A DNA stretch of 64,000 nucleotides from Eledone cirrhosa (lineage: Eukaryota). The stretch lies in assembly GCA_964016885.1 (NCBI GenBank), contig OZ024743.1, positions 292,330,001 through 292,394,000 of the forward strand. Direction: 5' to 3'. The translations under genes and the position numbers were made by a program. Shown here piece after piece: positions 20,478 to 61,951 of the stretch. The first letter of the stretch is position 1; the number at the start of each line of letters is the position of its first letter. Under the pieces are notes generated by a model. The model saw only the letters and a program-made list of their open reading frames with translations. It did no database searches and was not told the DNA's origin.

Positions 20478-20693
20478 GAATGCCATGGTTGACGGAGGCT
20501 CGGCTCTGTAAGGTATAGTAATTTTTAACCGTTAAAACAATTGTAAATTGTTTAAAACTTGAACCAAATTGTTGATAAAGACACCCTCCTCCTCGTGAGA
20601 GGGGTCTTTCTGTCCGTTATTTGGCCCTTCGGGGTTAAATAACCAGTTATTGGGGTTTTGTACCCAAAATTTCATTTTAAACAAAAAAACAAC

Positions 20694-22763
20694 ATGGCTA
20701 CGAAAAAGAAATTTCATACGTCACTCCCACTCATTCCGTCTTCTTCTTCCTCAATCATCACTACAGCAGAGAGAAGATTGTCTCTCTCCCTCCCTTCTCT
20801 TTCGCAAGTGACGAAAGAAAAGAAAAGTCTCGTGCAAAGCGTGCAAGGTTTCTCCACGACGACGACGACAGCGACGAAACAGGTTTGCGGGAAATACGAA
20901 AACCCAGTTCATTCGTCTGACGTCAGGAATAATAGCAGTAGCAGCCGTAATAACAACAGCAACAGTGACAATGAAAACAACAGTAGCAGCCGCAAAAGCA
21001 TCACCAGCAGCATAAACAACGACAGCATTAGCAGCAGCAACACCAACAACAACCACAGCAACAGCGGCGGAGGCAGTAGTCGTAGTACCTGCAGCAACAA
21101 CATAAGTACCAGCAGCTCTGACGACAACAACAACAGCAGAGAAAAACCAATCTCATTTGCAGGTATTGCGAAAAACTTGGAAACAATCCTCATAACAAAT
21201 GAGGAATTAGAGGAAGCGAAGAAGATGGTGACAAAGAACGGACACCGAGCAATCTGCAAGGCAGCGGAAAAACTTTTCGAAACCCAAGAGCACTGTACGG
21301 TCACGTACCGTACAGTAAGTACAAAATCCCGTAGAGTGGAAAGAGCCACAGAGGCCCAAATACAAAAAGCCTTGGGGTCTGTGTGGCAGCGGAAAACGCA
21401 CATCACCCGAGGCAAAAAATATGCCACCGTAGACGTACTTTTTGCCACACCCCAGGAGGCAAAGGCCCAATCAGTAGTGACCCTAAGGAGCGAGGAAATG
21501 GTGTTGGTGCCCTCCTACTGCGGGCAAAAAATTGTGAGGGTCAAACTGACCCACGTCCCCCCCGGAATGACCCCTTCTTGGCTGGCCGCGTCTGTCCTCG
21601 TCGGAATCGAGGACAAAACAACTGTACTGCAAGTACAGAAAAAAGTAAGAGAAGATTGGGTCGGCTCCTCCATTGAGATGCTAATCCAAACCAACCAGGA
21701 GTGCATCGAAGCTATCCCGGATGTGATAGACTTCGATAACGGCACTCAACTGCCCATAAGTGTTGAGGGCAAACGCCCGAAATGCTTTCGCTGTTGATCG
21801 AAGACTCACCTCGGGGCCTTCTGCAACGAGGAGACCCTGAGAAAGAAGAAAACCCCCCTCCTTCCGAATCCGGCTCCACGGCTACCAGCAACAGGACAAG
21901 CGGCAACCAGGAACGATAGGTCCGTGGCACCCATACCCACTCCACGGAAATCAAAAACAGCAGCAGCAGTGGAAATATTAACAACAACAACAGCAATACC
22001 AAATGCAGCAGCAACAGAGACTCCAGTGCAAACATCACCAACAACAACAAGTGAAAGAGTGGAGCTGGTACCCCTCCCCGACCTCACAGAATCAGACATG
22101 GAGTGTGAGGTGGGAGAGGGATGGCAAAAGGTCGTAAGAAGGCACAAACGCAGAAGCAGCGCATCGTCGCCTTTGAAAAGGGAGGAAAGAAATGAGAAAA
22201 GGGTAAAGTCTACTGCAAAGAGACCCACAGCAGCAACAACACCAACACCATCACCACCCACACTAGCACCACCATCACCACCGGCGACAACTCCACCGCC
22301 AACAACACCTTTAACACCACCACCACAAGCACCAACATCGCAAACACAACAACAAAACACACACACCCAGCAACAACGACAAGAAAATAGCAGAACCACA
22401 CCCCACCCCCAGAAAAACAAATGCACGGCAATAAACACACACAACAAGAAACTAATGACTTACATAATTGAACACACAGACATTTCACAACAGGACTACA
22501 TAATACCAGCACCAATCAAAACGCCAACTAACATAAGACTGCTAAAAATAGCACAGAAACAATACACAAACATTAAAACGAAATTCCCCAACGCAGTTGG
22601 TGATTTCAGGGACCTAGGAGGAACCATCAATCGAAGAGTATATTCAGACATTCTCTTAGAAGAGCCGACGAACAGCCGAAGGGACGATTCAACGGTCCCT
22701 TCACCAGACGATCAAGTGAAAAGGGATGTAAAAACCATCCCTCCTCTACCAAAAGTACGGTAA
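20694..22763 (+). pseudogene. Tx1 ORF1 (gag-like, CCHC knuckle), disrupted
   Basis: ATG at 20694. Knuckle CFRC*SKTHLGAFC with TGA at 21795-97, then a frameshift into the Pro/Thr-rich C-terminal part ending at 22763. Confidence 0.8.
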
Positions 22764-22798
22764 GTGGTCTTTCCCATCTTTTCCACTCTATTTTAAAC

Positions 22799-25700
22799 AT
22801 GACCTCACTCAGAATAGGCAGCATAAATGCGCGTGGCTTGGGGTCGTCATGGAAGCAGGGTCACCTGCTCAACGACCTCAGGTCACTAAACATAGATGTA
22901 GTGGCCATCAGCGAGACCAGAATCTCCGAAGCACGGGCCTTCGCACCGATCTTCGGCGGCTACGATGTGTACGCATCTGCCAGCCGTCCTGGATCGGGAG
23001 GAGGAGTTGCTGTGCTTTTTCGGAGAGGCCGTCTATGCCCCGGCAGGAGCAGGGCGGCCTGATTTCTTCCGGCGTCTGGAGAACTTTCTTGGAACGTCCC
23101 GCTCTTTAGTGTTAGTGGGCGACTGGAACGGGATCTTAGATGCACGCTGGGACTGTGTGGGATTAGCGGATAGGGGTGGTGGGTGCAAGAGCCTCACCAA
23201 CCTGCTCAGGCGTTTTGAACTGTCTGACAGCTACCGATTGGATTTCCCGAATGTGCCAATGTGGACTTGGACAAACCGCATAGGGTCATCCAGATCATAT
23301 CTAGATAGAGTATTTTGTAGGGAAATAGATAGGTCTAGCATAGGCTGTCCACAATTCAAGATAGTCAGCTACACGGACTACAAATTCGTGACCTGTGTGC
23401 TTGACTTAGATAGGCTTCATAGACGAGGACCCGGCTACTGGAAGCTAAACGCGTCCTTACCAGCGCGCAAGGCCTACAGAGACCGGATTAGCGAACTAGT
23501 TAAGCGGGCGTTGACGGGGGCCATCGTCAACAACAAGTGGTGGTTTGCTCTGAAAAGAGCGATTAGAATAGAATCGATTAGGTTTAGTAAGGCTTTAGCA
23601 ATAGAGAAAAATAGAGCAGAGGGAGAACTAGTTAGAAAATTAGACGAGGCGCTTAGCAAAGGCATTGCGACCGACGTGCTTGCGGCGAAATTGGCCCTTG
23701 ACCAATTCTTCAATGCAAAGCACGAAGGCTGCGTTGTCAGAGCTGGGGTGCGTGCTCTCAGACACGAGGGGGCGAAAGCCGTTCAATGGGCCCGAGTGGC
23801 GGAGGCGCGTCGTGGCAACAAAGCCACGATCCGGTCTTTGGTGGACCACGACGGGCGCATGCTACTCGATCCCGGGCAAATGTGTGAAGCTTTTCAGCGA
23901 CACTTCGCTCAGCTGTTCGGGGGCAGCGGGGGGCCGGGTAGAGGGATGGACTTTAGTGTCTACCTCGACGGACTGCCGCGGCTCTCGGCCACTGAGGCGA
24001 AGTGTTGCGAAAAGCCGATAACAGCCGCTGAAGTAAGGGAGGCAATGACTGGCTGCACAAGGGGTATATCGCCTGGTTTGGATGGTCTGCCCTATGAACT
24101 TTACGTACAGATGCCAGACTTGTTCGGAGGCCTCTTGGCGGACGTCTACTGCAACTGGCAACAGAACGGGAGAATTCCCAGTTCTGTGAGCCGAGGAGCG
24201 GTGGCACTGCTGAGAAAGGATCCGAACAAGGGGGATAACATAGAAAATTTCCGGCCCATAACTCTGCTAAACACAGAGTTTAAGATTTTGGCCAAGGTGC
24301 TAGCAAAGAGTTTGGCGCTTGTCGTTGGTGGTCTGGTGGGAGAGGCGCAGACATGCGCCATTCCCGACAGATCCATCCACGACAACCTCCACCTCATGCG
24401 ATACATCGTAGAGAGGGTAGCTAGGGAACCTGGCACGGGTGGGTCCTTGATCAATTTAGATCAGTCGAAAGCTTTCGATAGGGTCGACCATCGTTACCTA
24501 GCGGAAGTCCTGAGGGCGGCTGGCTTTGGGCCCGTCTTCAGAGGCTGGATCGCTGCCATGCACAGCGACATCTGCTCTGTGGTGAGAGTGAACGGTCACC
24601 TGTCGGAACCGTTCAACATCATGCGCTCGGTCCGCCAAGGATGTCCCCTCTCGTCCCTCTTGTACGTATTGACTCTCGAGCCATTACTGCACAAACTGGA
24701 GACGTTGAGGGGAGTCCCGCGCGAACTAGGATGCGGAAGATCCGTGTCAGCATATGCGGACGATGTCACCGTAGTGGTGTCGAACGCCAAACACATCGAG
24801 GCGATCGGCACTACACTAAGAGAATACGAAGCGGTGACAGGAGCAATGATCAACCAGGAAAAGTCAGTGGGCCTGCAGCTCGGCACCTGGAGAGGCAGGT
24901 CCATGCCGTCCAACAGCGTCGTCGGGCGCTGGACGGATGGACCGGTTAAATTGCTAGGGGTCTGGTTCGGTCCGGACCTCCAGACGGACAAAAACTGGGA
25001 CGAGGTGACGAGCAGGGTGGCTTCTCTCACCCAGAAGTGGGCGGAGAGGAAGCTATCCCTGAAAGGTCGAGCGGAGGTGGCTAACGCGTACATCGCGTCT
25101 GTCATCTGCTACCGCCTAACCGTCGTACCTTGTCCTAAGCCTCGCCTGACTGCGCTGGAGCGTTTGCTCTTTCGCTTTTTGTGGAAGGGACGTGCTCCGA
25201 TGGTCAGGCGGTCCATCTGTTGTCAACACCAGCTACGTGGAGGGCTGGGCATGCCGTGGCTGATGATGCGCAGACACGCGCTCAGGCTACGACATCTCCA
25301 CCTCTTCCTCGACGGTGATCAGGTGTGGTCGCCGTTTGCAAGACACGTTTTTCCCCAGCTCGCCTCCTTGACGGAGCTGCAGTCCTGGGTCAAGCGAAGA
25401 CCGAGAGGGAGCGCTTGGAGACTGGAATGTCTTCAGGCGCTCACAGCCCTCGACCAATCGGGCAATGTGATCGGTGGAAACTCCACCTTGGCGTTCTATA
25501 GGGGATTAGTGGAGGGGAAGAGCGACGACGTACTTGGAGAAACTCTAGGCGTCGACGAAAATCAACTAGCCAATCTCTTCGGAAGGACTTTCGGGCCGGG
25601 GCCTATGGACAACTTCCAGAAATCCCTGGCCTGGCAGTGCTACCGAGGAGCTTTGCCAGTTCGGGATAAACTCTACAGGCATGGAGGTGCCGTCAGCCGG

Positions 25701-26120
25701 GCATGTCCGAGATGCGCGTAGGGCGACGAAACCGTCCTGCACGCACTCGTCCAGTGTCCGAGCATTGCTGACTTGTGGGTTTATGTCGAACACCTGCTGC
25801 CACGTGTAGGACGGATCCAGCTATCAGCTGAGTCCATCGTGAGGATTGCCCCGCCCCTTTCCTTTAGCCTGGAAGGGCAGGCAGTTTTTATCTGTCTGGT
25901 GGCCATGGCGAAAGAGATAGTATGGTGGACACGTTTGAAAGGGCTGAAGACGAGCACTTACCTCTTCGGTGATGCCCTGATTAACTTTTTCAAATTTCAT
26001 TTGAAAAGGAAAATCAGGGTAGAGAGGGAAGTGCTCTCTTCCCAGCATTTTGTTGAAAGATGGGTGAGAGAAGCAAGTATAGCCCGAATGAATGGGCCTT
26101 CTCTGAGTATGTGTCTGTAA
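22799..26120 (+). pseudogene. Tx1 ORF2 (APE endonuclease-RT-zinc finger), disrupted
   Basis: SINARGL, ISET, GDWN, SYLD, RPITLLN, QGCPLS, YADD, CPRC..ETVLHALVQC. Has a 98-bp deletion at 23028/29 relative to copy 2 and a TAG at 25719-21. Confidence 0.92.
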
Positions 26121-26280
26121 ATTAAAGGTGGAAAACTGGGAGAGGGCACTTGCCCTGGTGGTCAGGGCCACTGTGGTCTGTTAATGGGCTTTCTCCACAA
26201 ATGTCCCTCGGAAGTCTCCCCCCTATTGGGGAATTTTTCTTTGTTATTTTATTTCATCCTCTGTTTTTTATATCTGATAT

Positions 26281-29200
26281 AAGTCTTTCTATATTATATC
26301 AGGTCTGTTTGCATCTATTTTTCGGTCTGTTTGGATGCTAAAGTTCCACAAGATTGAGATGTGATCTTTTTCAAGTATGGGAGGTGGTTGATGCTCCCAC
26401 CAATTCTTTTGATGGGGCAGGTCAAAATGCTTACACATTATCCAATGTATGTATTGTGCAGCTCTGTCATGCCTGTTTAGGTATTCGGTTGGAGCTATAG
26501 GACTGCACATTGAAATTATATGGTCAATGGTCTCTGGTTGTTTTTTGCATACACGGCATATTGGGCTGCACCCATTTTTTATTATGTTGGCTTGGTAATT
26601 TTTTGTTTTGCAGACACTGATCTTGTGCCGATATAATCAGTACTTCAGTCTCCGATTTCAGTCCAGAGGATACCAACCACTGATGGGTTAAAGTTTTGTC
26701 AACATCAGGATTGTTAGCTCGCTCTGGGTATTTTCCATACAGAGGCTTTTCTTGCCATTTCTTAGCCAGTTTCTGTAGCAGTTCTTTCTTTTCAGTTACT
26801 TTTACCTGCTTTGCTTTTTCTGTGTTTTCCATTTCAGCAGTAAATGGGACTTCTGAAATTTGTAGTCCATTACTGTATCTTTGTGGATCTTTTGTAATGG
26901 AATATGATCTTTTTATGCTTTCGTATTTCAAAACGAGTTTGATCATCCAATCATGTGATTCCCTTAGATATGTAGATAATCCAATTGTTGCAGTTTTCAA
27001 CGCAATGTCTAACTGGATTAACCCACGTCCTCCTTCTTTCCTAGGGAGATATATTCTATCTATATCTGCTTTAGGGTGATGCATTCTGTGCATGGTTAAG
27101 AATTTTCGAATTTTTGTATCGAGCCTACGGATTTCTGTGCTTGACCAGTTGATGACATTGTAACTGTAGGTTACTACTGGTATGGCAAGCGTGTTTATGG
27201 CATCGATCCTATTCCTTGCATTCAATTCCGTTCTTAAGATTGCTCTTACTCTGCGGTAATATTCCTTCCTTATCCTTTCCCTCATTGTCGAGTGCTTGAT
27301 TCCGTTTCCTTCACAAACACCTAGATATTTGTAAGTTTTTTCTTGATCAAGTTCTCTTATCACGTTCCCCCGATCAAGATTAATGTCTGAACTCTTCAGC
27401 AGCTTTCCTCTGGTGAACGTTGCTTTGGCGCATTTATCTAGTCCAAACTCCATTTTAATGTCATCACTGAACTGCTTCACTGTGGATAATAGCCCTTGCA
27501 ATTGTTCATCATTTTTTGCAAATAGTTTCAGGTCATCCATGTAGAACAGGTGATTAATGGTTTTGTCATAGACTTTATATCCATGTTTTGTTTCATTGAG
27601 CATTTTACTTAATGGTATAAGTGCGATGCAGAATAAAAGTGGTGATAAAGGGTCACCCTGAAAAATTCCACAATTAATGTTAACTTCTCCATCTTCCAGT
27701 GATTTTGTTTCACTATTCAAATGGAGTGTCGTTTTCCATGTCTCCATACTGAATGACAAAAACCTCCTGACAACGGGGGATATTTTGAAAATCTCTAAAC
27801 ATTTTTCAATCCAACTGTGTGGCAAACTATCGAATGCTTTTTTATAATCTATCCAAGCAATCGATAGATTTTTGTGTCTATTATGACAATCTTCCAGTAT
27901 CATTTTGTTAACCAGAATCTGATCCTTACAGCCATATGAGCCTCGTTTACACCCTTTTTGCTCAATGGGAAATAGGTCATTTTTTATCAGGTGGTCATAT
28001 GTGTATTCAGTTAGGACTGATGTTAAAATGTTATACATTGTGGTCAAGCAAGTTATCGGTCTGTAATTTTCGGGATTGTTTGTCTCATCATTCTTCGGAA
28101 GCAGGAATGTAATGCCGTTAACCAGCCATGAAGGTATCTTTTCTGGCTCCTTAACTATTTCATTGTAAAGTTGGGCTAACAGCTCATGAGATTCTGTGAA
28201 GGCATTTATCTAAAAGTTTTGTATTTTGTCTTTTCCTGGGGATTTCCTTTGGCTGGTTTTTCTTAGAGCCAAGCGCAACTGTTCAACTGTTATATTTTCC
28301 CATGTTTGTTCCTCATGGTGAGCTGTATCTTTCATTTGTCTGTCTATCCATGGGGCATGTATGTTATGAACTTTTTCTTCGACCCAGATCTTTTCCCAGA
28401 ATTCTTGCACTTCCTCCTTGGGTGGTATTGATTTAGCAGTTATTGTTGACTTACCAATTTTTCTGTAGAAGTTTCTTTGGTTGTTTTTGAACATATTATT
28501 GTCCTTATAGAATCTAGATCGTTTTTCAAAGCGCCTTATACGAGCAGCTTTGGCCGACACTTTTTGCTTGATTATTTCTAAGAGCATGTCTATGTCACAT
28601 GTTGATTTTTCAATTTTCTAAGTTTAGTTTGTTTAACATGTTCACCTACTTTATAGTTTGTTAAAATTTCTATGTCAGATCGGAGAAGGTCTATTTGGCG
28701 ATTGATGTTCTCTTGCCAAGTAGATTTCTTGTGGGAATTCCTTTGTTTTTTCATCTTCACTCCACATAAGTGCGTGGTGACTTTAGCCGATGCATAATAG
28801 AGATGATTTAAATCAGTAATGTTTAGTTTGTTTGTGATGATAATGTTTTTGAGAACTATGTTAGTCTTGTGTATTATCCTTTGGTTCTGTTTGGAGTTCT
28901 GGATCTTAGGGGGGGGGGGGTATCTCGTCGCCCCATGTCAGATTCTTTCATTTTCATCCATTCGATCATAATTTCATCCTTCAAGTTGGCAAGTTCATTT
29001 TCATTCATTTCTTTATCATTTACGATCTCATTATTTTCATTTGGAGTTTCATCCTGAGCATGCACTCCCTCCAATTTTCGATCCTTTCTTTAATTTGTTC
29101 TGTTGCCAGTGATGCCGCCCCAACTCTGGGATTCGAAGTGTTACAGTTTACCTCGTTTTCACTGACACATGTTTCATTTTCCCTTCGCTGACTTTGTGCT

Positions 29201-29794
29201 AATAGCTTGATCTGATCAATTTCTATATCAGTTAGTAACATTTTTCTTACAATATTTCTTCGTATATTGGCTAGTTTGTTACTGTCAATATAGCCTCTGT
29301 TTTCGGGATGTTTCTTTTTCCAGTTGATATATGTCTGTTCTGTATTCGATGTATTTGATGGGTAGTACATGGCAGTGTAGAAAGCCTCAAGTACTTCTTT
29401 ATTATCTTCCCTTGACCATTTTTCTCTCTTTTTCTTTGGATTTCTTGGTGGTGAGCATGGAGGGCCAACAGTAGGAGTATTCCGGTTATGGGAGGTCTCC
29501 AGCTCCGAAGTGATGGGAAGGTTTGAACCATTAGCTGATTTTTCGACACCAGTCTGGTTCCTCTCTGAGGGACGCGGCCCTTTTTTACCCGGGTGACGGC
29601 CGATCCGGTATGAGATTTTATCATTAGACATTTACTTTATTTTGTCGCGTTTTATCCTTATCCGCCAAGGGGTAATCATTTCGTGTTACCACTTCTAGAA
29701 CGAGTGTCAACCAAGACTAGAGGGGTCGTTCTCCCCTAGAGACACGACTATTCCCCGCCGGCCGCCATCCCGGTATTTCTTGGTCATGGGGTTT
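26281..29794 (-). mobile_element. R4/Dong-clade element family B copy 1 (5' complete, 3' deleted, frameshifted)
   Basis: ATG at 29631; Myb-like KWSREDNKEVLEAFY; DYKKAFD, GIFQGD, YMDD; ends inside the RLE at NRPDII. Confidence 0.9.
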
Positions 29795-31681: not shown

Positions 31682-34600
31682 GGCGACCTACGTAGTAAAT
31701 CGTATCATCGTGAGCTCCGCAAAGGTTTGTTATTTCCGTTTGTTAAAAATTGCCATTCATGGAAAATTTTTATTGTTAACCATATATAAGCGCACATACA
31801 TTGTTTTCTGAAAAGGACACCCAAAAAGATTGGGGCCTTGTGCCCAAAATTTTAACTTTTATTATTATCAAAAATTTCTTTGAAAAAAAAATGGCTAATT
31901 CAACTCTGCACCAAGCAGCTGAAAGCCTTCCTCACAAATTAACACCTCACACCGACACCACCATTGTAAATGTTACTACGTTTGCCAACACAAAAAAAAA
32001 TATAAGCAGTAGCAATATTTTAAATTTGTCTCAGGTACACATTCATTTCCCGCCATTACCAATGACTGCAGGTGTTAAAGCCTCCACTACCACCACCACC
32101 GCGACAACCCCCACCCCCACCACCACCGCGACAACAGAAACGAAAGAAGAAAAAAATTAATTAACTCGTGATGTCGAAATGAAATCAAGCAAAATGGACT
32201 CTTCCCCACCAAAGACGACTGACGTCACCACCAGCACAACTGAAACTAAAATTAATATTAACCCAAATAACGATAGCAACAACAACAACAATGACATTAT
32301 AAAACCGACCCTCAGTTTCGCCAGAGTAGCAAAACAGTTCGAAGCATTTACGGTAACTCAGGAGGATTTAGAAAATGCCAAACAAATGGTAAAGAAAGAT
32401 GGGTACAGGGTCAGCCTCACACACACCACCCCTAATAAAATGGAGCATCGGCGCCTATGCACCGTGTCGTATAGAACAATAAATGTAAAATCGCGCCGAG
32501 TGGAACGGGCATCCGTGTCCCAAATCCAAAAAGCTTTGGGACATGTGTGGGCAAGAAAAACCCACATCTGACGTGGGCAAAAATATGGAACCGTGGACGT
32601 GTTCTTTGAAACACCAGAGGAGGCTAGAGAACACTCCATGGCCCCATTAAGAAGAGACGACTTCACACTCGTCCCAAGCTATTGTGGCCAGAGACTCGTA
32701 AAGATGAGGGTGACCCACGTTCCACCGGCCATCGAAATTCCCTGGCTAATAGCGGCCGTCCTCGCCGGCATCGAAGCCAACACAAAAATAATAGCAACAG
32801 CAAAAGAAAAGCAGGAGAACTGGTCCGGATCTGGGATGGAGCTCCTGATCCAAGCGGACCAAAAAAGCATTGAGTAGATCCCAGAGATAATAGACCTCAC
32901 TAACGGCAGCCATCTCACGGTAATTGTCGAGGGCAGAAGACCTAGGTGTGTCGTTTGTGGTGAAGGAACCCACCAAAGGGCTTTCTGCCCTCAGGCTAAA
33001 AGGTTGAGGCCACCTCTCCTACCCTCCCCAGTGACACAACCATCAACACCACCAGTAGCAGAGATGGCAGCAACAACTGTAGCAGCAACAACAGAAGCAA
33101 CTATAACAGCAACAACCCAGCAACAGTAGCAAAACCAACACCACCACCACCACCAGCAAAACCAACACCCCCACCACCCAACGCTTCAGAACTAGCACCA
33201 GCGCCTACACCATCCACCACGCCACAACCAAAACTAACGCTTGTGGAGGATTTTCCACTCCCCGGCCTATCACAACTGGAGACAGATTGTGACGACGAGG
33301 AGTGGGAAACAATATCCGGAAAAAAAAAAGAAACCAAAAAAGAAAAAAATTCTCTTCCTTCCCCCTCCAAAAACAAAATACAGAGGGAAACAAATAAACT
33401 AAGAAACAAAAAAGTTAGGACAGATATGCCACCATCCACACCAGCATCACCAACCCCATCAACCCAAACACCAACCCCATCACCATCATTAACTCCAACA
33501 CCACCATCACCTACACCACAAAAGTCACCAAAATGCGAAACAGAAACAAACCCACAACAAACGCAAACAAAACAAAACAACCAAAACGATACACACTACA
33601 CAGCATTAAATTTGAACAATAAGCAATTATTACACTACATCCAACACAACACCAGCATCACAGAAAAAGACTACACAACAACCCCAAAATACACACCACC
33701 TCCACACATACAAATCACTCGCATCACACAGAAAACGTACATGACACTAAAACAAAAATTCCCCAAAGACATCGGAGACTTCCGACAAGCACTCTCCAGG
33801 AGGATTTATAAGGATATCCTTCCTGAGGAGGCCACAAGCAGTGAAAAGGATGGAAAAACCGTCCTTCCCCTACGAGAAGTAAGGTAAGTGGTCTTTCCCA
33901 CCTTTTCCACTCCTTTTCAACATGACCTCACTCAGAATAGGCAGCATAAATGCGCGTGGCTTGGGGTCGTCATGGAAGCAGGGCCACCTGCTCAACGACC
34001 TCAGGTCACTAAACATAGATGTAGTGGCCATCAGCGAGACCAGAATCTCCGAAGCACAGGCTTTCGCACCGATCTTCGGCGGATACGATGTGTACGCATC
34101 TCCCAGCCGTCCGGGATCGGGGTGGGAGGAGTTGCTGTGGTTTTTCGGAGAGGTTTGGATCTTGCCATACGGGCCATCTTCCTGGACCCAGAAGGTAAGT
34201 TGGTGGTGCTGGACGTGACTAGCGGAGACGGGCAAGCTTTCAGGTTAGTGGCCGTCTATGCCCCGACAGGAGCAGGGCGGCCTCGTTTCTTCCGGCGTCT
34301 GGAGACCTTTCTTGGAACGTCCCGCTCTTTAGTGTTAGTGGGCGACTGGAACGGGATCTTAGATGCACGCTGGGATTGTGTGGGATTAGTGGATAGGGAA
34401 GGAGGGTGCAAGAGTCTCACCAACCTGCTCAGACGTTTTGAACTGTCTGACAGGTACCGAATGGATTTCCCGAATGTACCAATGTGGACTTGGACAAATC
34501 GCATAGGGTCATCCAGATCATATCTAGATAGAGTATGTTGTAGGGAAATAGATAGGTCTAGCATAGGCTGTCCACAATTCAAGATAGTCAGCTACACGGA

Positions 34601-37585
34601 CCAAAAATTCGTGATCTGTGTGATTGACTTAGATAGGCTTCATAGGCGAGGACCCGGCTACTGGAAGCTAAACGCGTCCTTACCAGCGCGCAAGGCCTAC
34701 AGAGACCGGATTAGCGAACTAGTTAAGCGGGCGTTGACGGGGGCCATCGTCAACAACAAGTGGTGGTTTGCTCTGAAAAGAGCAATTAGAATAGAGTCCA
34801 TTAGGTTTAGTAAGACTTTAGCAATAGAGAAAAATAGAGCAGAGGGAGAACTAGTTAGAAAATTAGATGAGGCGCTTAGCAAAGGCATCGCGACCGACGT
34901 GCTTGCGGCGAAATTGGCCCTTGACCAATTCTTCAATGCAAAGCACGAAGGCTGCGTTGTCAGAGCTAGGGTGCGTGCTCTCAGACACGAGGGGACGAAA
35001 GCCGTTCAATGGGCCCGAGTGGCGGAGGCGCGTCGTGGCAACAGAGCCACGATCCGGTCTTTGGTGGACCACGACGGGCGCATGCTACTCGATCCCGGGC
35101 AAATGTGTGAAGCTTTTCAGCGACACTTCGCTCAACTGTTCGGGGGCAGTGGCGGGCCGGATCGAGGGATGGACTTTAGTGTCTAACTCGACGGACTGCC
35201 GCGGCTTTCGGCCACTGAGGCGGAGTGTTGCGAAAAGCCGATAACAACCGCTGAAGTACGGGATGCAATGACTAGTTGCACAAGGGGTAAATCGCCTGGT
35301 TTCGATGGTCTGCCCTATGAACTTTACGTACAAATGCCAAACTTGTTCGGGGGCCTCTTGGCGGATGTCTACTGCAACTGGCAACAGAACGGGAGAATTC
35401 CCAGCTCTGTGAGCCGAGGAGCGGTGGCCCTGCTGAGAAAGGATCCGAACAAGGGGGATAACATAGATAATTTTAGGCCCATAACTCTGCTAAACACAGA
35501 GTTCAAGATTTTGGCCAAGGTGCTAGCAAAGAGGTTGGCGCTTGTCGTTGGTGGTCTGGTGGGAGAGGCACAGACATGCGCCATTCGCGACAGATCCATC
35601 CACGACAACCTCCACCTCATGCGATACATCGTAGAGAGGGTAGCTAGGGAACCTGGCACGGGTGGGTCTTTGATCAATTTAGATCAGTCGAAAGCCTTCT
35701 ATAGGGTCGACCATCGTTACCTAGAGGCAGTCCTGAGGGCGGCTGGCTTTGGGCCCGTCTTCAGAGGCTGGATCGCTGCCATGCACAGCAACATCTGCTC
35801 TGTAGTGAGAGTGAAGGGTCACCCTTCGGAACCGTTCAACATCATGCGCTCGGTCCGCCAAGGATGTCCCCTCTCGTCCCTATTGTACGTATTGACTCTC
35901 GAGCCATTACTGCACAAACTGGAGACGTTCAGGGGGATCCCGCGCGAAATAGGATGCGGAAGATCCGTGTCAGCATATGCCGACGATGTCACCGTAGTGG
36001 TGTCGAACGCCAAATACATCGAGGCGATCGGCACTACACTAAGAGAATACGAAGCGGTGAGAGGAGCAATGATCAACCAGGAAAAGTCAGTTGGCCTGCA
36101 GCTCAGCACCTGGAGAGGCAGGTCCATGCCGTCCAACAGCGTCGTCGGGCGCTGGACAGACGGACCCGTTAAATTGCTAGGGGTCTGGTTCGGTCAAGAC
36201 CTCCAGACGGACAAAAACTGGGACGAGGTGACGAGCAGGGTGGCTTCTCTCACCCAGAAATGGGCCGAGAGGAAGCTATCCCTGAAAGGTCGAGCGGAGG
36301 TGGCTAACGCGTACATCGCGTCCGTCATCTATTACCGCCTGACCGTCGTACCTTGTCCTAAGCCCCGCCTGACTGCGCTGGAGCGTTTGCTCTTTCGCTT
36401 CTTGTGGAAGGGACGCGCTCCGATGGTCAGGCGGTCCATCTGCTGTCAACACCCACTACGTGGAGGGCTGGGCATGCCGTGGCTGATGATGCGCAGACAC
36501 GCGCTCAGGCTACGACATCTCCACATCTTCCTCGACGGTGATCAGGTGTGGTCGCCATTTGCTAGACACGTTTTTCCCCAGCTCGTCTCCTTGACGGAGC
36601 TGCAGTCCTGGGTCAAGCGAAGACCGAGAGGGAGCGCTTGGAGACTGGAATGTCTTCAGGCGCTCACAGCCCTCGACCAATCGGGCAATGTGATAGTGGA
36701 AACTCCACCTTGGCGTTCTATAGGGGATTAGTGGAGGTGAAGAGCGACGACGTACTTGGAGAAAATCTAGGCGTCGACGAAAATCAACTAGCCAATCTCT
36801 TCGGAAGGACTTTCGGGCCGGGGCCTATGGACAACTTCCAGAAATCCCTGGCCTGGCAGTGCTACCGGGGTGCTTTGCCAGTTCGGGATAAACTTTACAA
36901 GCATGGAGGTGCCGTCAGCCGGGCATGTCTGAGATGCGCACAGGGCGACGAAACCGTCCTGCACGCACTCGTCCAGTGTCCGAGCATTGCTGACTTGTGG
37001 GTTTATGTCGAACACCTGCTGTCACGTGTAGGACGGATCCAGCTATCAGCTGAGTCCATCGTGAGGTTTGCTCCGCCCTCTTCCTTTAGCCGGGAAGGGC
37101 AGGCAGTTTTTATCTGTCTGGTGGCCATGGCGAAAGAGATAGTATGGTGGACACGTTTGAAAGGGCTGAAGACGAGCACTTACCTCTTCGGTGATGCCCT
37201 GATTAACTTTTTCAAATTTCATTTGAAAAGGAAAATCAGGGTAGAGAGGGAAGTGCTCTCTTCCCAGCATTTTGTTGAAAGATGGGTGAGAGAAGCAAGT
37301 ATAGCCCGAATGAATGGGCCTTCTCTGAGTATGTGTCTGTAAATTAAAGGTGGAAAACTGGGAGAGGGCACTTGCCCTGGTGGTCAGGGCCACTGTGGTC
37401 TGTTAATGGGCTTTCTCCACAAATGTCCCTCGGAAGTCTCCCCCCTATTGGGGAATTTTTCTTTGTTATTTTATTTCATCCTCTGTTTTTTTTACACGCA
37501 GAAATGCCCATTTGTACCGTACTGTATTGTCCTATACCGTCCTTAATGTCTACTTTATGTAAACCCTTGTGGTTAATAAAGAAAA

Positions 37586-37587
<2 letters not shown>
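31682..37587 (+). mobile_element. Tx1-clade LINE copy 2, full length (5' module type 2), disrupted ORFs
   Basis: ORF1 31891-33887 (several stops; knuckle CVVCGEGTHQRAFC). ORF2 33922-37342 (frameshifts, TAA at 35184-86). 3' AATAAAgaaaaca then (TTA)n. Confidence 0.92.
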
Positions 37588-37628: not shown

Positions 37629-40600
37629 CCTTGAATCTCAGTCATTGATGTTGGTTAACTGGAAAGTCCGTTGGATTGAATATCAAGCCACTACCTGCAG
37701 CCTCAGATATTCAGGACGTATCGGAGGGTTCTTGCCGTTCCAAGCAAGCATGCCTTTTGAAGCGTTCCAAAAAGCGTGAAGGGGCCGATTTTCTTTAACC
37801 ATCCCTGGAAACCTTTGGAGATAGTCCCCAGTGCGCCTATGACAATCGGGATCACTTTGACTTCATGGCAGTTCCAAATCCTTTTCACCTCCCACTTTAG
37901 GTCCTGGTATCGGTTAATTTTCTCCCTCTCCTTCTCTTGCACTCTCGTGTCGAACGGGCAGGCCACATCCACAATCAGGCACGATCTTTTTTCTTTGTCC
38001 ACAACCACAAGGTCAGGTCTATTGTGTTCCAGTTTTTTGTCCGTCTGTATCCTAAAATCCCACAGCACCTTCACCTGACTGTTCTCCATCACCGCCTCTG
38101 GCCTATGCTCATACCATTTCTCAGAATGTGGTAGATTGTTTACTTTGCACAGGTGCCAGTGGATCACCCTGCCCATCACATCGTGTCTCCAGCCCTTATA
38201 GTGGGTCTGGGCTAGGTGTTTACACTCGGACACAATGTGAGCCACAGTCTCCTCTCTCTCTCCACAGATCCTGCACAGTGGGCTAGCCTCCTCCTTGTAG
38301 ATATGGTGCTTCAACCACTTCGTTTTGAGGGCCTGCTCCTGCGCAGCCATTAGCATTCCTTCTGTAGCCTTTTTGAGGTCTCCTCTTCTCAACCAGTTAC
38401 ATGTCTGTGGATCTCTAAATTCAGTTTTCTCAAAGAAGGTACTATGAAGGGATTTTCCCTTAAGGCTGCTCTTCCTCCTTGATGTTATTTCCTCCTTGGG
38501 TATCCCCTGGCCTACTGTCCCCTCCTTCAGTACAGCTCTGAGCATTGGCTCCTTACTATAGGTCACGTATTTGTATAGGTTGTTTTTCTCCATCTGAACA
38601 CAGTCCTCTATGCTGATAAGACCTCTTCCACCCTCAGATCTCCTTAGGTAGAGTCTATCGACATCACTCCTCTTGTGGAACATGTTGTAGATAGTCAATA
38701 GCTTCCTAGTCTTCCTATCCATTTCTTTTTGTTCAGCAACATTCCATCTCAGAATTCCCGCACTGTACCTAATAATAGACACAGCTCGGGAATTTACTGC
38801 GCTTATGGCATTTCTGCTGTTCAGATGTGACTTCAATACGCTCCTTACTCTCCGAATGTATTCAGTTCTTAACAATTCCTTCATTTTTTTGTTCTTTATG
38901 CCATCAGCCTCCAGAACGCCCAAATACTTGTATCCTTCCTCAGAGTCAATTTCCTTTATCATCTCACCTGTTGGTATCTGGATCCCGTTACTTCTGCTCA
39001 ACCTACCCCTCCTCATCACAATGACTCCACATTTACCAATACCAAACTGCATACATATATCACTGCTGAAAATACGGACAGTGTCAACAAGCACATCCAA
39101 CTCCTTCTCACTTTTCCCGAAGAGCTTAAGATCGTCCATGAAGAGGAGGTGATTGATGGTAAGCTCTCCCCTTCCCAACTTGTATCCTGCTCTCACTTTT
39201 CGCAGCATAATGGTCAAGGGCATCAGGGCAAGGACAAACAACAGAGGGGACAGGCTATCTCCCTGGAAGATACCTCTCTTGATCTTCACGCTTCCCAAGG
39301 ATACTCCAGTTGATGTCAACTCTGTCTCCCAGGACCCCATACTCCTGCCCAGCAACTGTCTGATGTTATCTGCCACCCTGAAGATCTCCAGGCTTTTGGT
39401 GATCCAGGAATGAGGCACCATGTCAAATGCCTTTCTGTAGTCTATCCATCCCATGGCAAGATCAGTGTGTCTCCTCCTGCAATTCCCCATTACCATCTTA
39501 TCAATAAGCAACTGGTCCTTTGTACCACGTGACTTCTTTCGGCATCCTTTCTGTTCGTCCGGCAACAAGTTGTTTGTGTGGAGGTGATGGTAGATTTCCT
39601 CAGACACAATGCTCGTCAACAGTTTCCACATTACGGGCAGACATGTGATAGGTCTATAGTTGGTAACATCATTACCCTTGATTCGGTCTTTCATTATCAG
39701 AACTGTGGTACCTTTTGTCAACCACTCTGGCACCTCACCCGACACCAAGCAGTCATTGAACATGGCCGTCAGCTTCGGGTGGAGGGATGTTAAATGTTTA
39801 ATCCAATACTCCTGCACACCATCTGGGCCTGGTGATTTCCAGTTGGTTAGTTTTTTGGCTTGCCCCTTAAGAGTTTCAACTGTGATACTCAAATCAGTCT
39901 GTTGCTGTGCCTGCTCACCGATCTCCCTCTGTACTGTCTCAATCCACCCTGCCTGGGCATTGTGTCTAACATCCTGCTCCCATATTCCTCTCCAGAATGT
40001 TTTAGCTTGTTCCGCCCCAGGGATCAAGTCGGTGCCTCTTTCTTTCCCCTCAAGCTGTCCAAACAGCATCTTCTGGCTGTTGTCGAACATGCGGTTCTGT
40101 TTATACTGACTGACTCTGTTCTCGTATCGCCTGATTTTGGCACTCTTTGCTACAATGCGTTGCTTCAATTCCTCTATGATAATATTTAGCTTTTTACTCC
40201 TAGTTTTGTATTTTATTTCCAGTCTATTTTTAGTGCCTATGTTTTTTAGTGTCCCATTCAGTAGTGACTCAAGCTTTCCTATGTCATTTCTCATTTCCCC
40301 GATTTGCCCACTCAGTCGCTTCTTCCACCACGGCTCTGCTCTTTCTTGTCTGTTGTTTCCTCTCGCTTTTATACCAAGTAGTTTCCTCACCGTATTTGCT
40401 GTTGCTTTGAGGATATTGTTGCACTGGTGAAGACTCCTCGCCTCAAGGTATGGGATGACTTTGTTTACCTTAGCTGTTGTTTCTTTTAACTTTTTCCTGT
40501 CTACAAATCTTAGGTTCATAGGTCTCCCACTATCATTGTTCAACTCATCTACCACTAAATTTAGGATGTCAACCGAATCTTGTCCTAGCCCGTCAGCATT

Positions 40601-44480: not shown

Positions 44481-44533
<53 letters not shown>

Positions 44534-44534
<1 letters not shown>

Positions 44535-46016: not shown

Positions 46017-46054
<38 letters not shown>

Positions 46055-47525: not shown

Positions 47526-47566
<41 letters not shown>

Positions 47567-49037: not shown

Positions 49038-49075
<38 letters not shown>

Positions 49076-50057: not shown

Positions 50058-53000
50058 GGCGACCTACGTAGGAAATCGTATTATCGTGAGCTCCGCAAAG
50101 GTTTGTTATTTCCGTTTGTTTAAAAATTGCCATTTATGGAAAATTTTATTGTAAATTGTTTATAAGCACACATACATTGTTTTCCGAAAAGGACACCCAA
50201 AAAGATTGGGGCCTTGTGCCCAAAGTTTTAACTTTTATTATTATCCAAAAATTTCTTTGAAAAAAAAATGGCTAATTCCCCTATGCACGAAGCAGCTGAA
50301 AGCCTTCCTCACAAAATAACACCTCACACCGACACCACCATTGTAAATGTTACTACGTTTGCCAACACAAAAAAAAATATAAGCAGTAGCAATATTTTAA
50401 ATTTGTCTCAGGCAGACATTCATTTCCCGCCATTACCAATGACTGCAGGTGTTAAACCCTCCACCACCACCACCACCGCGACAACAAAAACAAAAGAAGA
50501 AAAAAATAAATTAACTCGTGACGTCGAAATGAAATCAAGCAAAATGGACTCTTCCCCACCAACGACGACTGACGTCACCACCACCACAACTGAAAATAAA
50601 ATTAATATTAACGATAGCAACAACAACAACAATGACATTATAAAACCGACCCTCAGTTTCGCCATCGTAGCAAAACAATTCGAAGCGTTCACGGTAACTC
50701 AAGAAGATTTAGAAAATGCCAAACAAATGGTAAAGAAAGATGGGTACAGGGTCAGCCTCACCCCCCCCCCCCCGCCAACCCCACCTAATAAAATGGAGCA
50801 TCGGCGCCTGTGCACCGTGTCGTATAGAACAATAAATGTAAAATCGCGCCGAGTGGAACGGGCATCCGAGTCCCAAATCCAAAAAGCTTTGGGACATGTG
50901 TGGGCAAGAAAAACCCACATCAGACGTGGGCAAAAGTATGGAACCGTGGATGTGTTCTTTGAAACACCAGAGGAGGCTAGAGAACACTCCATGGCCCCAT
51001 TAAAAAGTGACGACCTCACACTCGTCCCAAGCTATTGTGGCCAGAGACTCGTAAAGATCAGGGTGACCCACGTTCCACCGGCCATCGAAATTCCCTGGCT
51101 AATAGCGGCTGTCCTCGCCGGCATCGAAGCCAACACAAAAATAATAGCAGTAGCAAAAGAAAAGTAGGAAAACTGGTCCGGATCTTGGATGGAGCTCCTG
51201 ATCCAAGCGGACCAAAAAAGCATTGAGGAGATCCCAGAGGTAATATACCTCACTGACGGCAGCCACCTCGCGGTAATTGTCGAGGGCAGAAGACCTAGGT
51301 GTGTCGTTTGTGGTGAAGGAACCCACCTAAGGGCTTTCTGCCCTCAGGCTAAAAGGTTGAGGCCACCTCTCCTACCCTCCCCAGTGACACAACCATCAAC
51401 ACCACCAGTAGCAGAGATGGCAGCAACAACTGTAGCAGCAACAACAGAAGCAACTATAACAGCAACAACCCCAGCAACAGTAGCAAAACCAACACCACTA
51501 CCACCACCAGCAAAACCAACACCACCACCACCCAACGCTTCAGAACTAGCACCAGCGCCTACACCATCACCACACCACAACCAAAACTAACGGCTGTGGA
51601 GGATTTTCCACTCCCCGGCCTATCACAACTGGAGACAGATTGTGACGACGAGGAGTGGGAAACGATATCCGGAAAAAAAAATAGAAACCAAAAAAGAAAA
51701 AATTCTCTTCCTTCCCCCTCCAAAAACAAAATACAGAGGGAAACAAATAAACTAAGAAACAAAAAAGTTAGGACAGATATGCCACCATCCACACCAGCAT
51801 CACCAACCCCATCAACCCAAACACCAACACCATCACCATCATTAACTCCAACACCACCATCACCTACACCACAAAAGTCACCAAAATGCGAAACAGAAAC
51901 AAACCCACAACAAACGCAAACAAAACAGAACAACCAAAACGATACACACTACACAGCATTAAATTTGAACAATAAGCAATTATTACACTACATCCAACAC
52001 AACACCAGCATCACAGAAAAAGACTACACAACAACCCCAAAATACACACCACCTCCACACATACAAATCACTCGCATCACACAGAAAACGTACATGTCAC
52101 AAAAACAAAAATTCCCCAAAGACATCGGAGACTTCCGACAAGCACTCTCCAGGAGGATTTATAAGGATATCCTTCCTGAGGAGGCCACAAGCAGTGAAAA
52201 GGATGGAAAAATCGTCCTTCCCCTACGAGAAGTAAGGTAAGTTGTCTTTCCCATCTTTTCCACTCCTTTTCAACATGACCTCACTCAGAATAGGCAGCAT
52301 AAATGCGCGTGGCTTGGGGTCGTCATGGAAGCAGGGCCACCTGCTCAACGACCTCAGGTCACTAAACATAGATGTAGTGGCCATCAGCGAGACCAGAATC
52401 TCCGAAGCACAGGCTTTCGCACCGATCTTCGGCGGATACGATGTGTACGCATCTCCCAGCCGTCCGGGATCGGGGGGGGAGGAGTTGCTGTGCTTTTTCG
52501 GAGAGGTTTGGATCTTGCCATACGGGCCATCTTCCTGGACCCAGAAGGTAAGTTGGTGGTGCTGGACGTGACTAGCGGAGACGGGCAAGCTTTCAGGTTA
52601 GTGGCCGTCTATGCCCCGACAGGAGCAGGGCCGCCTGGTTTCTTCCGGCGTCTGGAGACCTTTCTTGGAACGTCCCGCTCTTTAGTGTTAGTGGGCGACT
52701 GGAACGGGATCTTAGATGCACGCTGGGATTGTGTGGGATTAGTGGATAGGGAAGGAGGGTGCAAGAGTCTCACCAACCTGCTCAGACGTTTTGAACTGTC
52801 TGACAGGTATCGAATGGATTTCCCGAATGTACCAACGTGGACTTGGACAAATCGCATAGGGTCATCCAGATCATATCTAGATAGAGTATTTTGTAGGGAA
52901 ATAGATAGGTCTAGCATAGGCTGTCCACAATTCAAGATAGTCAGCTACACGGACCACAAATTCGTGATCTGTGTGCTTGACTTAGATAGGCTTCATAGAC

Positions 53001-55944
53001 GAGGACCCGGCTACTGGAAGTTAAACGCGTCCTTACCAGCGCGCAAGGCCTACAGAGACCGGATTAGCGAACTAGTTAAGCGGGCGTTGACGGGGGCCAT
53101 CGTGAACAACAAGTGGTGGTTTGCTCTGAAAAGAGCAATTAGAATAGAGTCCATTAGGTTTAGTAAGACTTTAGCAATAGAGAAAAATAGAGCAGAGGGA
53201 GAATTAGTTAGAAAATTAGATGAGGCGCTTAGCAAAGGCATCGCGACCGACGTACTTGCGGCGAAATTGGCCCTTGACCAATTCTTCAATGCAAAGCACG
53301 AAGGCTGCGTTGTCAGATCTAGGGTGCGTGCTCTCAGACACGAGGGGACGAAAGCCGTTCAATGGGCCCGAGTGGCGGAGGCGCGTCGTGGCAACAAAGC
53401 CACGATCCGGTCTTTGGTGGACCACGACGGGCGCATGCTACTCGATCCCGGGCAAATGTGTGAAGCTTTTCAGCGACACTTCGCTCAACTGTTCGGGGGC
53501 AGTGGCGGGCCGGATCGAGGGATGGACTTTAGTGTCTAACTCGACGGACTGCCGCGGCTTTCGGCCACTGAGGCGGAGTGTTGCGAAAAGCCGATAACAA
53601 CCGCTGAAGTACGGGATGCAATGACTAGTTGCACAAGGGGTAAATCGCCTGGTTTCGATGGTCTGCCCTATGAACTTTACGTACAAATGCCAAACTTGTT
53701 CGGAGGCCTCTTGGCGGACGTCTACTGCAACTGGCAATAGAACGGGAGAATTCCCAGCTCTGTGAGCGTAGGAGCGGTGGCGCTGCTGAGAAAGGATCCG
53801 AACAAGGGGGATAACATAGATAATTTTAGGCCCATAACTCTGCTAAACACAGAGTTCAAGATTTTGGCCAAGGTGCTAGCAAAGAGGTTGGCGCTTGTCG
53901 TTGGTGGTCTGGTGGGAGAGGCGCAGACATGCGCCATTCCCGACAGATCCATCCACTACAACCTCCAACTCATGCGATACATCTTAGAGAGGGTAGCTAG
54001 GGAACCTGGCACGGGTGGGTCTTTGATCAATTTAGATCAGTCGAAAGCCTTCGATAGGGTCGACCATCGTTACCTAGCGGCAGTCCTGAGGGCGGCTGGC
54101 TTTGGGCCCGTCTTCAGAGGCTGGATCGCTGCCATGCACAGCGACATCTGCTCTGTAGTGAGAGTGAATGGTCACCTTTCGGAACCGTTCAACATCATGC
54201 ACTCGGTCCGCCAAGGATGTCCCCTCTCGTCCCTCTTGTACGTATTGACTCTCGAGCCATTACTGCAGAAACTGGAGACGTTGAGGGGGTCCCGCGCGAA
54301 CTAGGATGCGGAAGATCCGTGTCAGCATATGCCGACGATGTCACCGTAGTGGTGTCGAACGCCAAACACATCGAGGCGATCGGCACTACACTAAGAGAAT
54401 ACGAAGCGGTGACAGGAGCAATGATCAACCAGGAAAAGTCAGTGGGCCTGCAGCTCGGCACCTGGAGAGGCAGGTCCATGCCGTCCAACAGCGTCGTCGG
54501 GCGCTGGACGGACGGACCGGTTAAATTGCTAGGGATCTGGTTCGGTCCAGACCTCCAGACGGACAAAAACTGGGACGAGGTGACGAGCAGGGTGGCTTCT
54601 CTCACCCAGAAATTGGCCGAGAGGAAGCTATCCCTGAAAGGTCGAGCGGAGGTGGCGAATGCATACATCGCATCCGTCATCTACTACCGCGTGACCGTCG
54701 TACCTTGTCCTAAGCCCCCCCCCCCCCCCTGACTGCGCTGGAGCGTTTGCTCTTTCGCTTCCTGTGGAAGGGACGCGCTCCGATGGTCAGGCGGTCCATC
54801 TGCTGTCAACACCCGCTACGTGGAGGGGTGGGCATGCCGTGGCTGATGATGCGCAGACACGCGCTCAGGCTACGACATCCCCACCTCTTCCTCGACGGTG
54901 ATCAGGTGTGGTCGCCGTTTGCAAGACACGTTTTTCCCCAGCTCGTCTCCTTGACGGAGCTGCAGTCCTGGGTCAAGCGAAGACCGAGAGGGAGCGCTTG
55001 GAGACTGGAATGTCTTCAGGCGCTCACAGCCCTCGACCAATCGGGCAATGTGATCGGTGGAAACTCCACCTTGGCGTTCTATAGGGGATTAGTGGAGGGG
55101 AAGAGCGACGACGTACTTGAAGAAACTCTAGGCGTCGACGAAAATCAACTAGCCAATCTCTTCGGAAGGACTTTCGGGCCGGGGCCTATGGACAACTTCC
55201 AGAAATCCCTGGCCTGGCAGTGCTACCGAGGAGCTTTGCCAGTTCGGGATAAACTCTACAGGCATGGAGGTGCCGTCAGCCGGGCATGTCCGAGATGCGC
55301 GCAGGGCGACGAAACCGTCCTGCACGCACTCGTCCAGTGTCCGAGCATTGCTGACTTGTGGGTTTATGTTGAACACCTGCTGTCACGTGTAGGACCTATC
55401 CAGCTATCAGCTGAGTCCATCGTGAGGATTGCCCCGCCCCCTTCCTTTAGCCTGGAAGGGCAGGCAGTTTTTATCTGTCTGGTGGCCATGGCGAAAGAGA
55501 TAGTATGGTGGACACGTTTGAAAGGGCTGAAGACGAGCACTTACCTCTTCGGTGATGCCCTGATTAACTTTTTCAAATTTCATTTGAAAAGGAAAATCAG
55601 GGTAGAGAGGGAAGTGCTCTCTTCCCAGCATTTTGTTGAAAGATGGGTGAGAGAAGCAAGTATGGCCCGAATGGATGGGCCTTCTCTGAGTATGTGTCTG
55701 TAAATTAAAGGTGGAAAACTGGGAGAGGGCACTTGCGCTGGTGGTCAGGGCCACTGTGGTCTTTTAATGGGCTTTCTCCACAAATGTCCCTTGGAAGTCG
55801 CCCCCCTATTGGGAATTTTTCTTTGTTATTTTATTTCAACCTCTGTTTTTTTACACGCAGAAATGCCCATTTGTACCGTCCTGTATTGTCCTGTACTGTC
55901 CTTAATGTCTACTTTATGTGAACCCTTGTGGTTAATAAAGAAAA

Positions 55945-55946
<2 letters not shown>
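50058..55946 (+). mobile_element. Tx1-clade LINE copy 3, full length (5' module type 2), disrupted ORFs
   Basis: ORF1 50268-52240 and ORF2 52275-55703, with stops and frameshifts. Same 5' start ggcgacctacgtag as copy 2. Confidence 0.92.
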
Positions 55947-61300: not shown

Positions 61301-61903
61301 AGCCAAATATCCTTAAAAGGCACGAACACGTACACGAGCATCCACGAAATCATGCTCTGGGGACACTACAGACAGCATGGTGCCGTGCTGAAGCAGCAAG
61401 CACAGAGAACCATATATGTACTCATTGATTTAAATAACTGATTTAGTTATTATTACCGCTTCAATACTTATTGTTATCAGTCTCGTCTGACCATGCTGAC
61501 TCATAGATTGGCGTCTGCTGTATAAGGATTGACCAACAATAAAAATGGCCGTCTCCAACGAATTATCATTTTCGTGTTGATGAAAGGAATACCGGCATAC
61601 ATCATTATTGCTACCATTATATCAGTTACACGAGACAGAAACTAATATACGATTGAATATTTCCATATGTATATCCTATCTATTCATCTATCTGTTTGTC
61701 TATCGATATACATATACACAAGCACACACACAAATACACACATACACATACAAATACACACACACATAAAAACTTACAGACACACATATATATGTATATA
61801 AGCATATATATCTATCGGTATAAATACACACACACATATATATATATATAAATATATATATGTGTGTGTGTATTTATACCGATAGATATATATGCTTATA
61901 TAC

Positions 61904-61937
<34 letters not shown>

Positions 61938-61951
61938 ATTTATACCGATAG

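Follow-up and report, generated by a model that had tools for sequence, protein, structure and literature searches.

Among the described systems closest to the locus analysed here, Ty1/copia elements carry a conserved U1 site that yields a GAG-only RNA, as in Arabidopsis EVD and in Drosophila copia with its ∼3-kb intron (PMC5580714, available part of the text). For LINEs, the prevailing view is that weak reinitiation on a single unspliced RNA is the chief means of balancing ORF1 against ORF2, and the available sections of PMC5860796 present the splicing of human L1 as harmful. Those sections nevertheless report conserved splice sites in the 5' UTR and ORF1 of L1, the source of the spliced SpIREs, together with transcripts that mostly stay unspliced and proteins that prefer to act in cis. 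Penelope-like elements, which belong to another reverse transcriptase (RT)/endonuclease class, retain an intron through retrotransposition; it lies in the 5' UTR, over the promoter (PMC8557442, available part). Within the Tx1 clade, Kibi and Koshi are two-ORF elements with an APE endonuclease, an RT and a C-terminal zinc finger that insert into the microsatellites (TC)n and (TTC)n, respectively (PMC4494074, available part).

We describe here a clade of L1/Tx1-type elements in which two of three families share a conserved splice donor where the first gene ends. This donor is our main finding, and it probably reflects a means of control in these LINEs that is either copia-like or based on U1. 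As in Ty1/copia elements (PMC5580714, same part), a U1-type donor lies near the end of the structural gene, a structural-protein-only mRNA is predicted, the unspliced RNA would serve as the template, and U1 may guard the full-length RNA; unlike those LTR elements, which have a single GAG-POL frame and splicing shown in RNA, the present elements are two-ORF and non-LTR, with splicing inferred from DNA. Their two ORFs, APE endonuclease and microsatellite flanks place them outside Ty1/copia itself; the copia-type layout is found as a set of sequence features, namely the conserved first-gene-end donor, a downstream acceptor with a poly(A) signal, and a predicted mRNA complete with a stop. They share with Kibi and Koshi the two ORFs, the endonuclease, RT and zinc-finger domains and the habit of inserting into microsatellites, but the part of PMC4494074 available neither lists their target, (ATT)n, for any Tx1 element nor mentions splice signals at ORF ends. 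Like human L1, they are bicistronic LINEs with conserved splice sites; unlike those of L1, their donors sit right beside stop codons, with a 3'-UTR acceptor as the possible partner (PMC5860796, same sections). The top literature matches listed included no report of conserved donors at the ORF ends of Tx1/L1-type elements, a coverage that leaves out most subscription journals and Repbase notes. If our interpretation is true, a LINE lineage purposely exploits the spliceosome or U1 of its host and has converged on the copia solution, which would explain how a retroelement can retain splice signals and would suggest a route to ORF1-only elements.

Element copies in the window

The window, a 64,000-nucleotide stretch of microsatellite-rich animal DNA that probably comes from an octopus (of ten proteins inspected, the only one with a name is an Octopus bimaculoides model), holds a nest of non-LTR retrotransposons within (ATT)n between 20.4 and 58 kb. 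Three plus-strand copies, A to C, are listed in Table 1 with the features of their junctions. Pfam profiles identified in ORF2 an N-terminal APE endonuclease (PF03372), an RT (PF00078) and a C-terminal zinc finger (PF13966, at 36566-37339 and 54714-55700), and a profile of ORF2 and its relatives had human L1 ORF2p as its best match among solved structures (E 2e-128). The separate upstream ORF1 had no Pfam match; it carries a zinc knuckle (CX2CX4HX4C) that was read from the translations of copies A and C. The plus-strand elements end without a poly(A) tail, and (ATT)n adjoins all 4 intact 3' ends and all 4 of the 5' ends that were inspected, which marks their insertion as sequence-specific. On these sequence features we assign copies A to C to the L1/Tx1 group of non-LTR retrotransposons, with a clade tree that contains no named Tx1 sequence. 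As assembled, every copy is interrupted in both ORFs; the frame opened by the ORF2 ATG extends over only 87-98 codons, and an unbroken ORF2 is present in 0 of 3. At a G-rich run (34118-34127) the ORF2 frame shifts in B and C, and contigs of three sequencing runs have length variants there.

Table 1. Positions of the element copies and candidate splice features in the window (a slash marks a candidate exon-intron boundary)
Feature	Positions	Strand	Remarks
Copy A	20478..26272	+	Diverged ORF1 type with the same ORF2 as B and C
Copy A donor ACG/GTAAGT	22757..22765	+	GT at 22760
Copy B, L1/Tx1-type non-LTR retrotransposon	31682..37586	+	Flanked by (ATT)n
Copy B ORFs	ORF1 from 31891, ORF2 33922-37342	+	Both interrupted
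14-nt word with donor AAG/GTAAGT	33878..33891	+	GT at 33884; ORF1 stop 33885-33887; identical word at family 2 ORF1 end
Inter-ORF spacer	33888..33921	+	34 nt, 79% pyrimidine, no significant fold
ORF2 ATG	33922..33924	+	Usual place, just 5' of APE endonuclease
Proximal candidate acceptor (ORF2 codon 5)	33927..33935	+	CTCACTCAG/; ends at 33935, also at 52288 and 22812
Second AAG/GTAAGT, in ORF2 coding sequence	34192..34200	+	GT at 34195, also 52548; explained by codons
Distal candidate acceptor, 3' UTR	37455..37501	+	CAG with its last base at 37501, preceded by a long pyrimidine tract and an AG-free zone of 63 nt; also 55860, 42895, 44394
AATAAA	37575..37580	+	74 nt past distal acceptor; element end 37586
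Copy C	50058..55945	+	Same type as B, 96% identical
Copy C donor AAG/GTAAGT	52234..52242	+	GT at 52237

Copy A diverges from the others upstream of the junction. Its ORF1 tail is homologous to that of B/C at 43% amino acid identity, and at 22700-22760, ∼45 nt before the donor, it passes into sequence 93-96% identical to them (93% from 22715/33840 on; 96% across ORF2), a pattern that suggests an ORF1 swap through recombination; A-type variants are also present in contigs of run X5. Copy A also ends before the position of the 3'-UTR acceptor and has a 98-nt deletion near 23028, which we rejected as a splice product because its end is not AG and it shows GG microhomology.

The ORF1-ORF2 junction

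The frame of the ORF1 tail is the true one, as its FP.D.G motif aligns with both relatives, and the ORF1 stop, TAA, occupies donor positions +2 to +4. The original prediction was that a cryptic intron at this point fuses ORF1 to ORF2, and the donors, pyrimidine-rich spacers and acceptors lie exactly where it had placed them in all three copies. The segment between donor and proximal acceptor measures 52 nt in B and C and 53 nt in A, the difference sitting in the spacer and being neutral under any model. Both of its ends are in phase 2. In 3 of 3 copies its removal deletes the ORF1 stop together with the ORF2 ATG, restores a codon for Arg and leaves ORF1 continuous with ORF2 in one frame, as had been claimed. 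The candidate intron thus has both GT-AG ends with a U1 consensus and in-frame removal, though a frame match alone has, as was conceded at the outset, a 1-in-3 chance. The agreement of all three copies despite divergent ORF1 types had been pointed out; the fit is real, but the three junctions are one lineage and not three independent tests, being 93% identical from 45 nt upstream with ORF1 tails at 43%.

The proximal acceptor is the first AG beyond donor position +5. When YAG sites are ordered by the pyrimidine count of the preceding 40 nt, it takes rank 2 of 188 in B and joint rank 1 of 185 in C, although on the nearer 20 nt in B it comes only sixth, tied, with 14/20 pyrimidines. The pyrimidine tract lies 5' of the sole TGAC, a possible branch point situated 42 nt from the donor and 10 nt from the AG. 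In short fly introns the pyrimidine tract may lie upstream of the branch point. A figure for the minimal intron length of octopus was not found in the literature, including the available part of PMC11649378. Related subfamilies likewise have pyrimidine-rich spacers, as judged from contig loose ends at 33918. A mini-intron of 52-53 nt, with ORF2 made as an ORF1-ORF2 fusion, is geometrically possible as a feature of the window family alone, and its top-scoring donor and high-ranking first AG speak for it.

Homologous proteins and sequencing contigs bear on this fusion less kindly. Of 85 ORF2 homologues examined, codon 5 provided an anchor in 64 (in two cases a wrong one), and 54 of these have a Met of their own within three residues of the window's ORF2 start, a count that is biased because gene callers favour Met. 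Codon 5 is variable (Arg in 26, including the 2 mis-anchored, Lys in 13, Asn in 10, other residues in 15), and because a phase-2 AG requires Arg there, only 26 of the 64 are compatible with the splice. An ORF1-ORF2 fusion did not turn up among the proteins compared, but searches with the ORF1 tail (longer lengths, near lengths, Atlas) gave no matches at all and hence had no power to reveal proteins that are fused or carry a tail. ORF2 homologues with N-terminal extensions were considered as ORF1 fusions and rejected; one, P0040, is a kinesin gene model of Octopus bimaculoides whose C-terminus is an endonuclease fragment of this element family, either through exonisation or through an annotation error. 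Read-through upstream of the start occurs in P0089, P0097, P0044 and possibly P0104, with V-S or G-E 11-16 codons before it; judged from protein alone, these pairs (in 3-4 of ∼8 long enough) are a weak hint of donor-encoded residues. For P0012, no genome locus was found.

A spliced fusion RNA would encode the RT and should be copied in cis, leaving intron-less copies, and a genome search for copies precisely lacking the segment had been put forward as a check. The contigs available are of unrecorded kind and come from four of six matching runs, none of the six being recorded as RNA. The comparison covered 15 joints out of 139 and 24 loose ends out of 705, so that rare or ORF2-less forms may have escaped it. 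The intron-less joint 33883-33936 was absent among the best 15 of the 139 joints in the four contig sets, the lowest joint depth among those 15 being 15.9 as against a summed depth of ∼2.6e5 at 33901, and contig depth over the spacer was similar to that over the ORF1 tail. Intron-less copies that are common in the DNA are thereby made slightly less likely; the result bears on DNA, not RNA.

Conservation of the donor in related families

Family 2 comprises 65 loci from a scan of genome contigs, 64 of them in tandem arrays of one bacterial genome record and 1 in another record. The arrays (G001, contigs C3-C19; L001-L065 and L145-L146) are evidently DNA of an animal host; they fill at least 16 contigs with head-to-tail units of 6.4-6.8 kb, mostly intact L1/Tx1-type elements of two families in an unusual organisation. 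No Rfam family matched the one family 2 array locus scanned, nothing was found in viral contigs, and metagenome hits were unrelated.

Family 2 ORF2 is 43% identical to that of copy A over 915 residues. The 14 nt at the end of its ORF1 are identical to window positions 33878-33891, and the only other words of that length or longer shared between the window and family 2 (L079) are two ORF2 coding motifs. The word is read in another frame in family 2, where it is partly non-coding. G/GTAAGT stands at the ORF1 end in 64 of the 65 loci, which represent 9 distinct variants, and the exception is a decayed copy. The positions flanking the donor vary (+7 to +9), and the upstream GT is lost in L048; L147, an older copy, keeps the donor despite an altered stop and spacer. 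A junction deletion in the decayed L113 was rejected as a splice, since it is ∼21 nt long and has no AG. We take the motif at 33884 to be a conserved donor, that is, a splice-donor-type signal which appears from these comparisons to be under selection.

The sequence around the family 2 donor is arranged differently. Family 2 ORF1 terminates at the first TAA, 1 nt before the donor, and only 13 nt, without a pyrimidine tract, separate the donor from the ORF2 AUG; with the stop upstream and so short a spacer, neither a mini-intron nor a fusion is possible. Because the donor precedes the AUG, any splice from it would remove the ORF2 start. In family 3 (L145 and L146), whose identity to family 2 is 48%, the junction lacks a consensus donor and shows an overlapping stop-start, TAATG, instead. 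The window family and families 2 and 3 form one clade (support 96/97), and the donor at the first-gene end is conserved in 2 of its 3 families; among four more distant loci (30-38% identity in the RT), G/GTRAGT was found in 0 of 3 scored stop windows at locatable ORF ends. The expectation that donor, acceptor and phase would be conserved in relatives was thus borne out for the donor in family 2, while acceptor and phase are lost there and family 3 lacks the junction donor altogether. With its layout absent from both families, one lineage behind the three copies, ORF2 homologues that mostly start on their own Met and no intron-less joint among those inspected, we consider it improbable that ORF2 is made as a fusion through the 52-53-nt intron. 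Of the proposal that splicing at this donor controls ORF2, the apparently selected donor-type signal survives; the fusion as its means does not pass the comparison with families 2 and 3.

Might the motif have no role at all, ORF2 being made by plain reinitiation and TAA plus ordinary sequence only mimicking splice sites? TAA itself provides three letters of the motif, the second AAG/GTAAGT within ORF2 demonstrates that so good a donor can arise from codons, and the comparison is limited to three families. The 14-nt identity, however, occurs at a homologous place despite 43% protein identity and different reading frames, and 3 of 5 stop windows other than the one where the motif was discovered also carry it (see below). 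Coincidence seems to us very improbable.

Donors at the end of ORF2 and acceptors in the 3' UTR

Donor-like sites recur at the end of the second gene. Of the 65 family 2 loci, 60 extend to the ORF2 end, and all 60 have GTRAGTA there; position -1 is G in 53 of them, and GTAAGT and GTGAGT replace one another. Family 3 has CAG/GTAAGT 43 nt past its ORF2 stop; the window family has no consensus donor at its ORF2 end. When the discovery site is left out, G/GTRAGT occurs in 3 of 5 stop windows of the clade as compared to a chance of 0.5-3% each. The joint chance is 2.6e-5 if the windows are independent, a figure to be read with the motif and the 50-nt window having been picked after inspection of the data and with an independent sample of three families. 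All clade donors lie within 45 nt of a stop. By the usual rule for nonsense-mediated decay, a junction this near a stop spares that stop, so such transcripts would be expected to avoid decay at it.

These second sites also bear on whether the word is some other cis-element, such as a ribosome reinitiation signal for ORF2 or a protein-binding site, its likeness to a donor being coincidental. In favour of this, the distance from the word to the ORF2 AUG is 13-38 nt, the shared letters begin farther upstream than the usual -3 position, and family 3, which lacks the word, has the overlapping TAATG. Yet the consensus recurs past the ORF2 stop, with no further ORF behind it, and shows the exchange of GTAAGT and GTGAGT that is typical of donors, and no stable structure was found; a hairpin concealing the donor was considered and rejected (z -0.8 to +0.8 in the window). 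The invariant donor core corresponds to the U1 footprint, by the U1 pairing rule, which also counts against another cis-element. We regard this alternative as quite unlikely.

Candidate acceptors precede AATAAA in the 3' UTRs of all three families. The window acceptor at 37501 ranks 1 of 188 by pyrimidines and 2 of 188 by the length of its AG-free zone; the corresponding ranks are 4 of 217 and 1 of 217 in family 2 and 1 of 189 and 2 of 189 in family 3. In family 2, YAG is present in 59 of 60 loci, a count that was built into the search pattern and is not used as evidence. The window acceptor follows the shared GGGGAATT motif, whereas those of families 2 and 3 precede it, which makes homology between the distal acceptor of the window and theirs improbable. 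An 18-nt word beginning GGGGAATT (window 37451-37468) is common to the window and one family 2 subfamily (L001 3' UTR), with a shorter match in family 3, and is possibly an RT recognition signal. The 3'-UTR donor-acceptor segment of family 2 (L074, 8484-8722) contains an 11-bp inverted repeat that is kept in 8 of 9 aligned copies.

A splice that would remove ORF2

The reading we favour, to which we give a little less than an even chance, is that the donor at 33884 splices to the 3'-UTR acceptor at 37501 and drops the whole of ORF2. U1 would bind the donor, and a fraction of transcripts would be spliced from 33883 to 37502; joined in silico, B and C both give ORF1 with 19 additional residues and a stop in the last exon. 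The unspliced RNA would provide ORF2 from its own AUG and also act as template. The ORF1-only RNA would encode no RT, and, since L1-type proteins act in cis (PMC5860796, available sections), it would not be copied, so that the splice signal would survive retrotransposition. Retention of an intron through retrotransposition is a likeness to Penelope-like elements, although those keep theirs in another position and with other enzymes (PMC8557442, available part).

Support for this ORF2-dropping splice comes from the persistence of the donor in a 43%-identical family in which a fusion is impossible, and from a highly ranked 3'-UTR acceptor followed by a poly(A) signal in all three families. Several observations weigh against it. 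No spliced read, contig or protein was seen in the runs, none of which is recorded as RNA, or among the homologues. A consensus donor is missing from the end of ORF1 in family 3 and from the end of ORF2 in the window family, T-rich 3' UTRs easily yield acceptor-like sites, the distal acceptor of the window is probably non-homologous to the other two, and in the window the proximal acceptor scores equally well (32 as against 33 pyrimidines of 40 in B; a tie in C). Conservation within family 2 is weaker as evidence because its 3' UTR is conserved overall (79% column identity). A processed, ORF2-less copy, which would also count in favour, was not found: 56 of 56 scored family 2 units, which are overlapping loci in tandem arrays, keep ORF2 and both donors. 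HAL1 (half-L1) elements are ORF1-only derivatives of L1, and a processed copy of the ORF1-only mRNA would resemble them.

A close rival is that U1 snRNP binds the donor but splicing is rare, U1 either guarding the long RNA from premature polyadenylation or making it resemble an intron-containing transcript. Conservation extends to the donor but not to the acceptor with which it would pair, and the 3'-UTR donor-acceptor segment of family 2 persists in 60 of 60 loci reaching it, though an RNA that is spliced there and still carries both ORFs should lose the segment on retrotransposition; productive splicing of a 3'-UTR intron in families 2 and 3 should thus have erased it. Precedents exist in EVD, where U1 binding blocks premature termination (PMC5580714, available part), and in human L1, which has conserved splice sites yet mostly evades splicing (PMC5860796, available sections). 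Against this stand the strong acceptors that do follow the donors and the lack of AATAAA or ATTAAA between the donor and the ORF2 stop of copy B, whose internal signals lie upstream, in ORF1; HUSH-type protection, moreover, is reportedly independent of a 5' splice site (PMC8770142, available part). We judge binding of U1 with little splicing to be fairly unlikely, and we continue to prefer the removal of ORF2.

A wider proposal would be that the clade as a whole sets its ORF1:ORF2 ratio by alternative splicing from stop-codon donors, with an ORF1-only mRNA and an intron kept through retrotransposition, and that the window family may add a fusion through the 52-nt mini-intron from the same donor. 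Going by the DNA comparisons above, we hold this proposal to be doubtful, on the unlikely side.

Other elements in the window

Two unrelated retrotransposon types are nested in the same (ATT)n on opposite strands at 20431-58360. The minus-strand type, which we take to be Dong/R4-like, is represented by single-ORF elements at 37703-41128 and 26281-29631 with an RT and a PD..D-type nuclease motif. At 44481-50020 the 3' part of this minus-strand element is duplicated about four times, in head-to-tail units of 1.5 kb that are each bounded by (ATT)n, and at 41665-42650 three 330-nt tandem repeats lie in what is apparently its 5' region. Finally, a 481-codon open frame at 61824-63269, without a Pfam match and presumably Penelope-like, has RT-like motifs and a possible C-terminal GIY-YIG-like segment.
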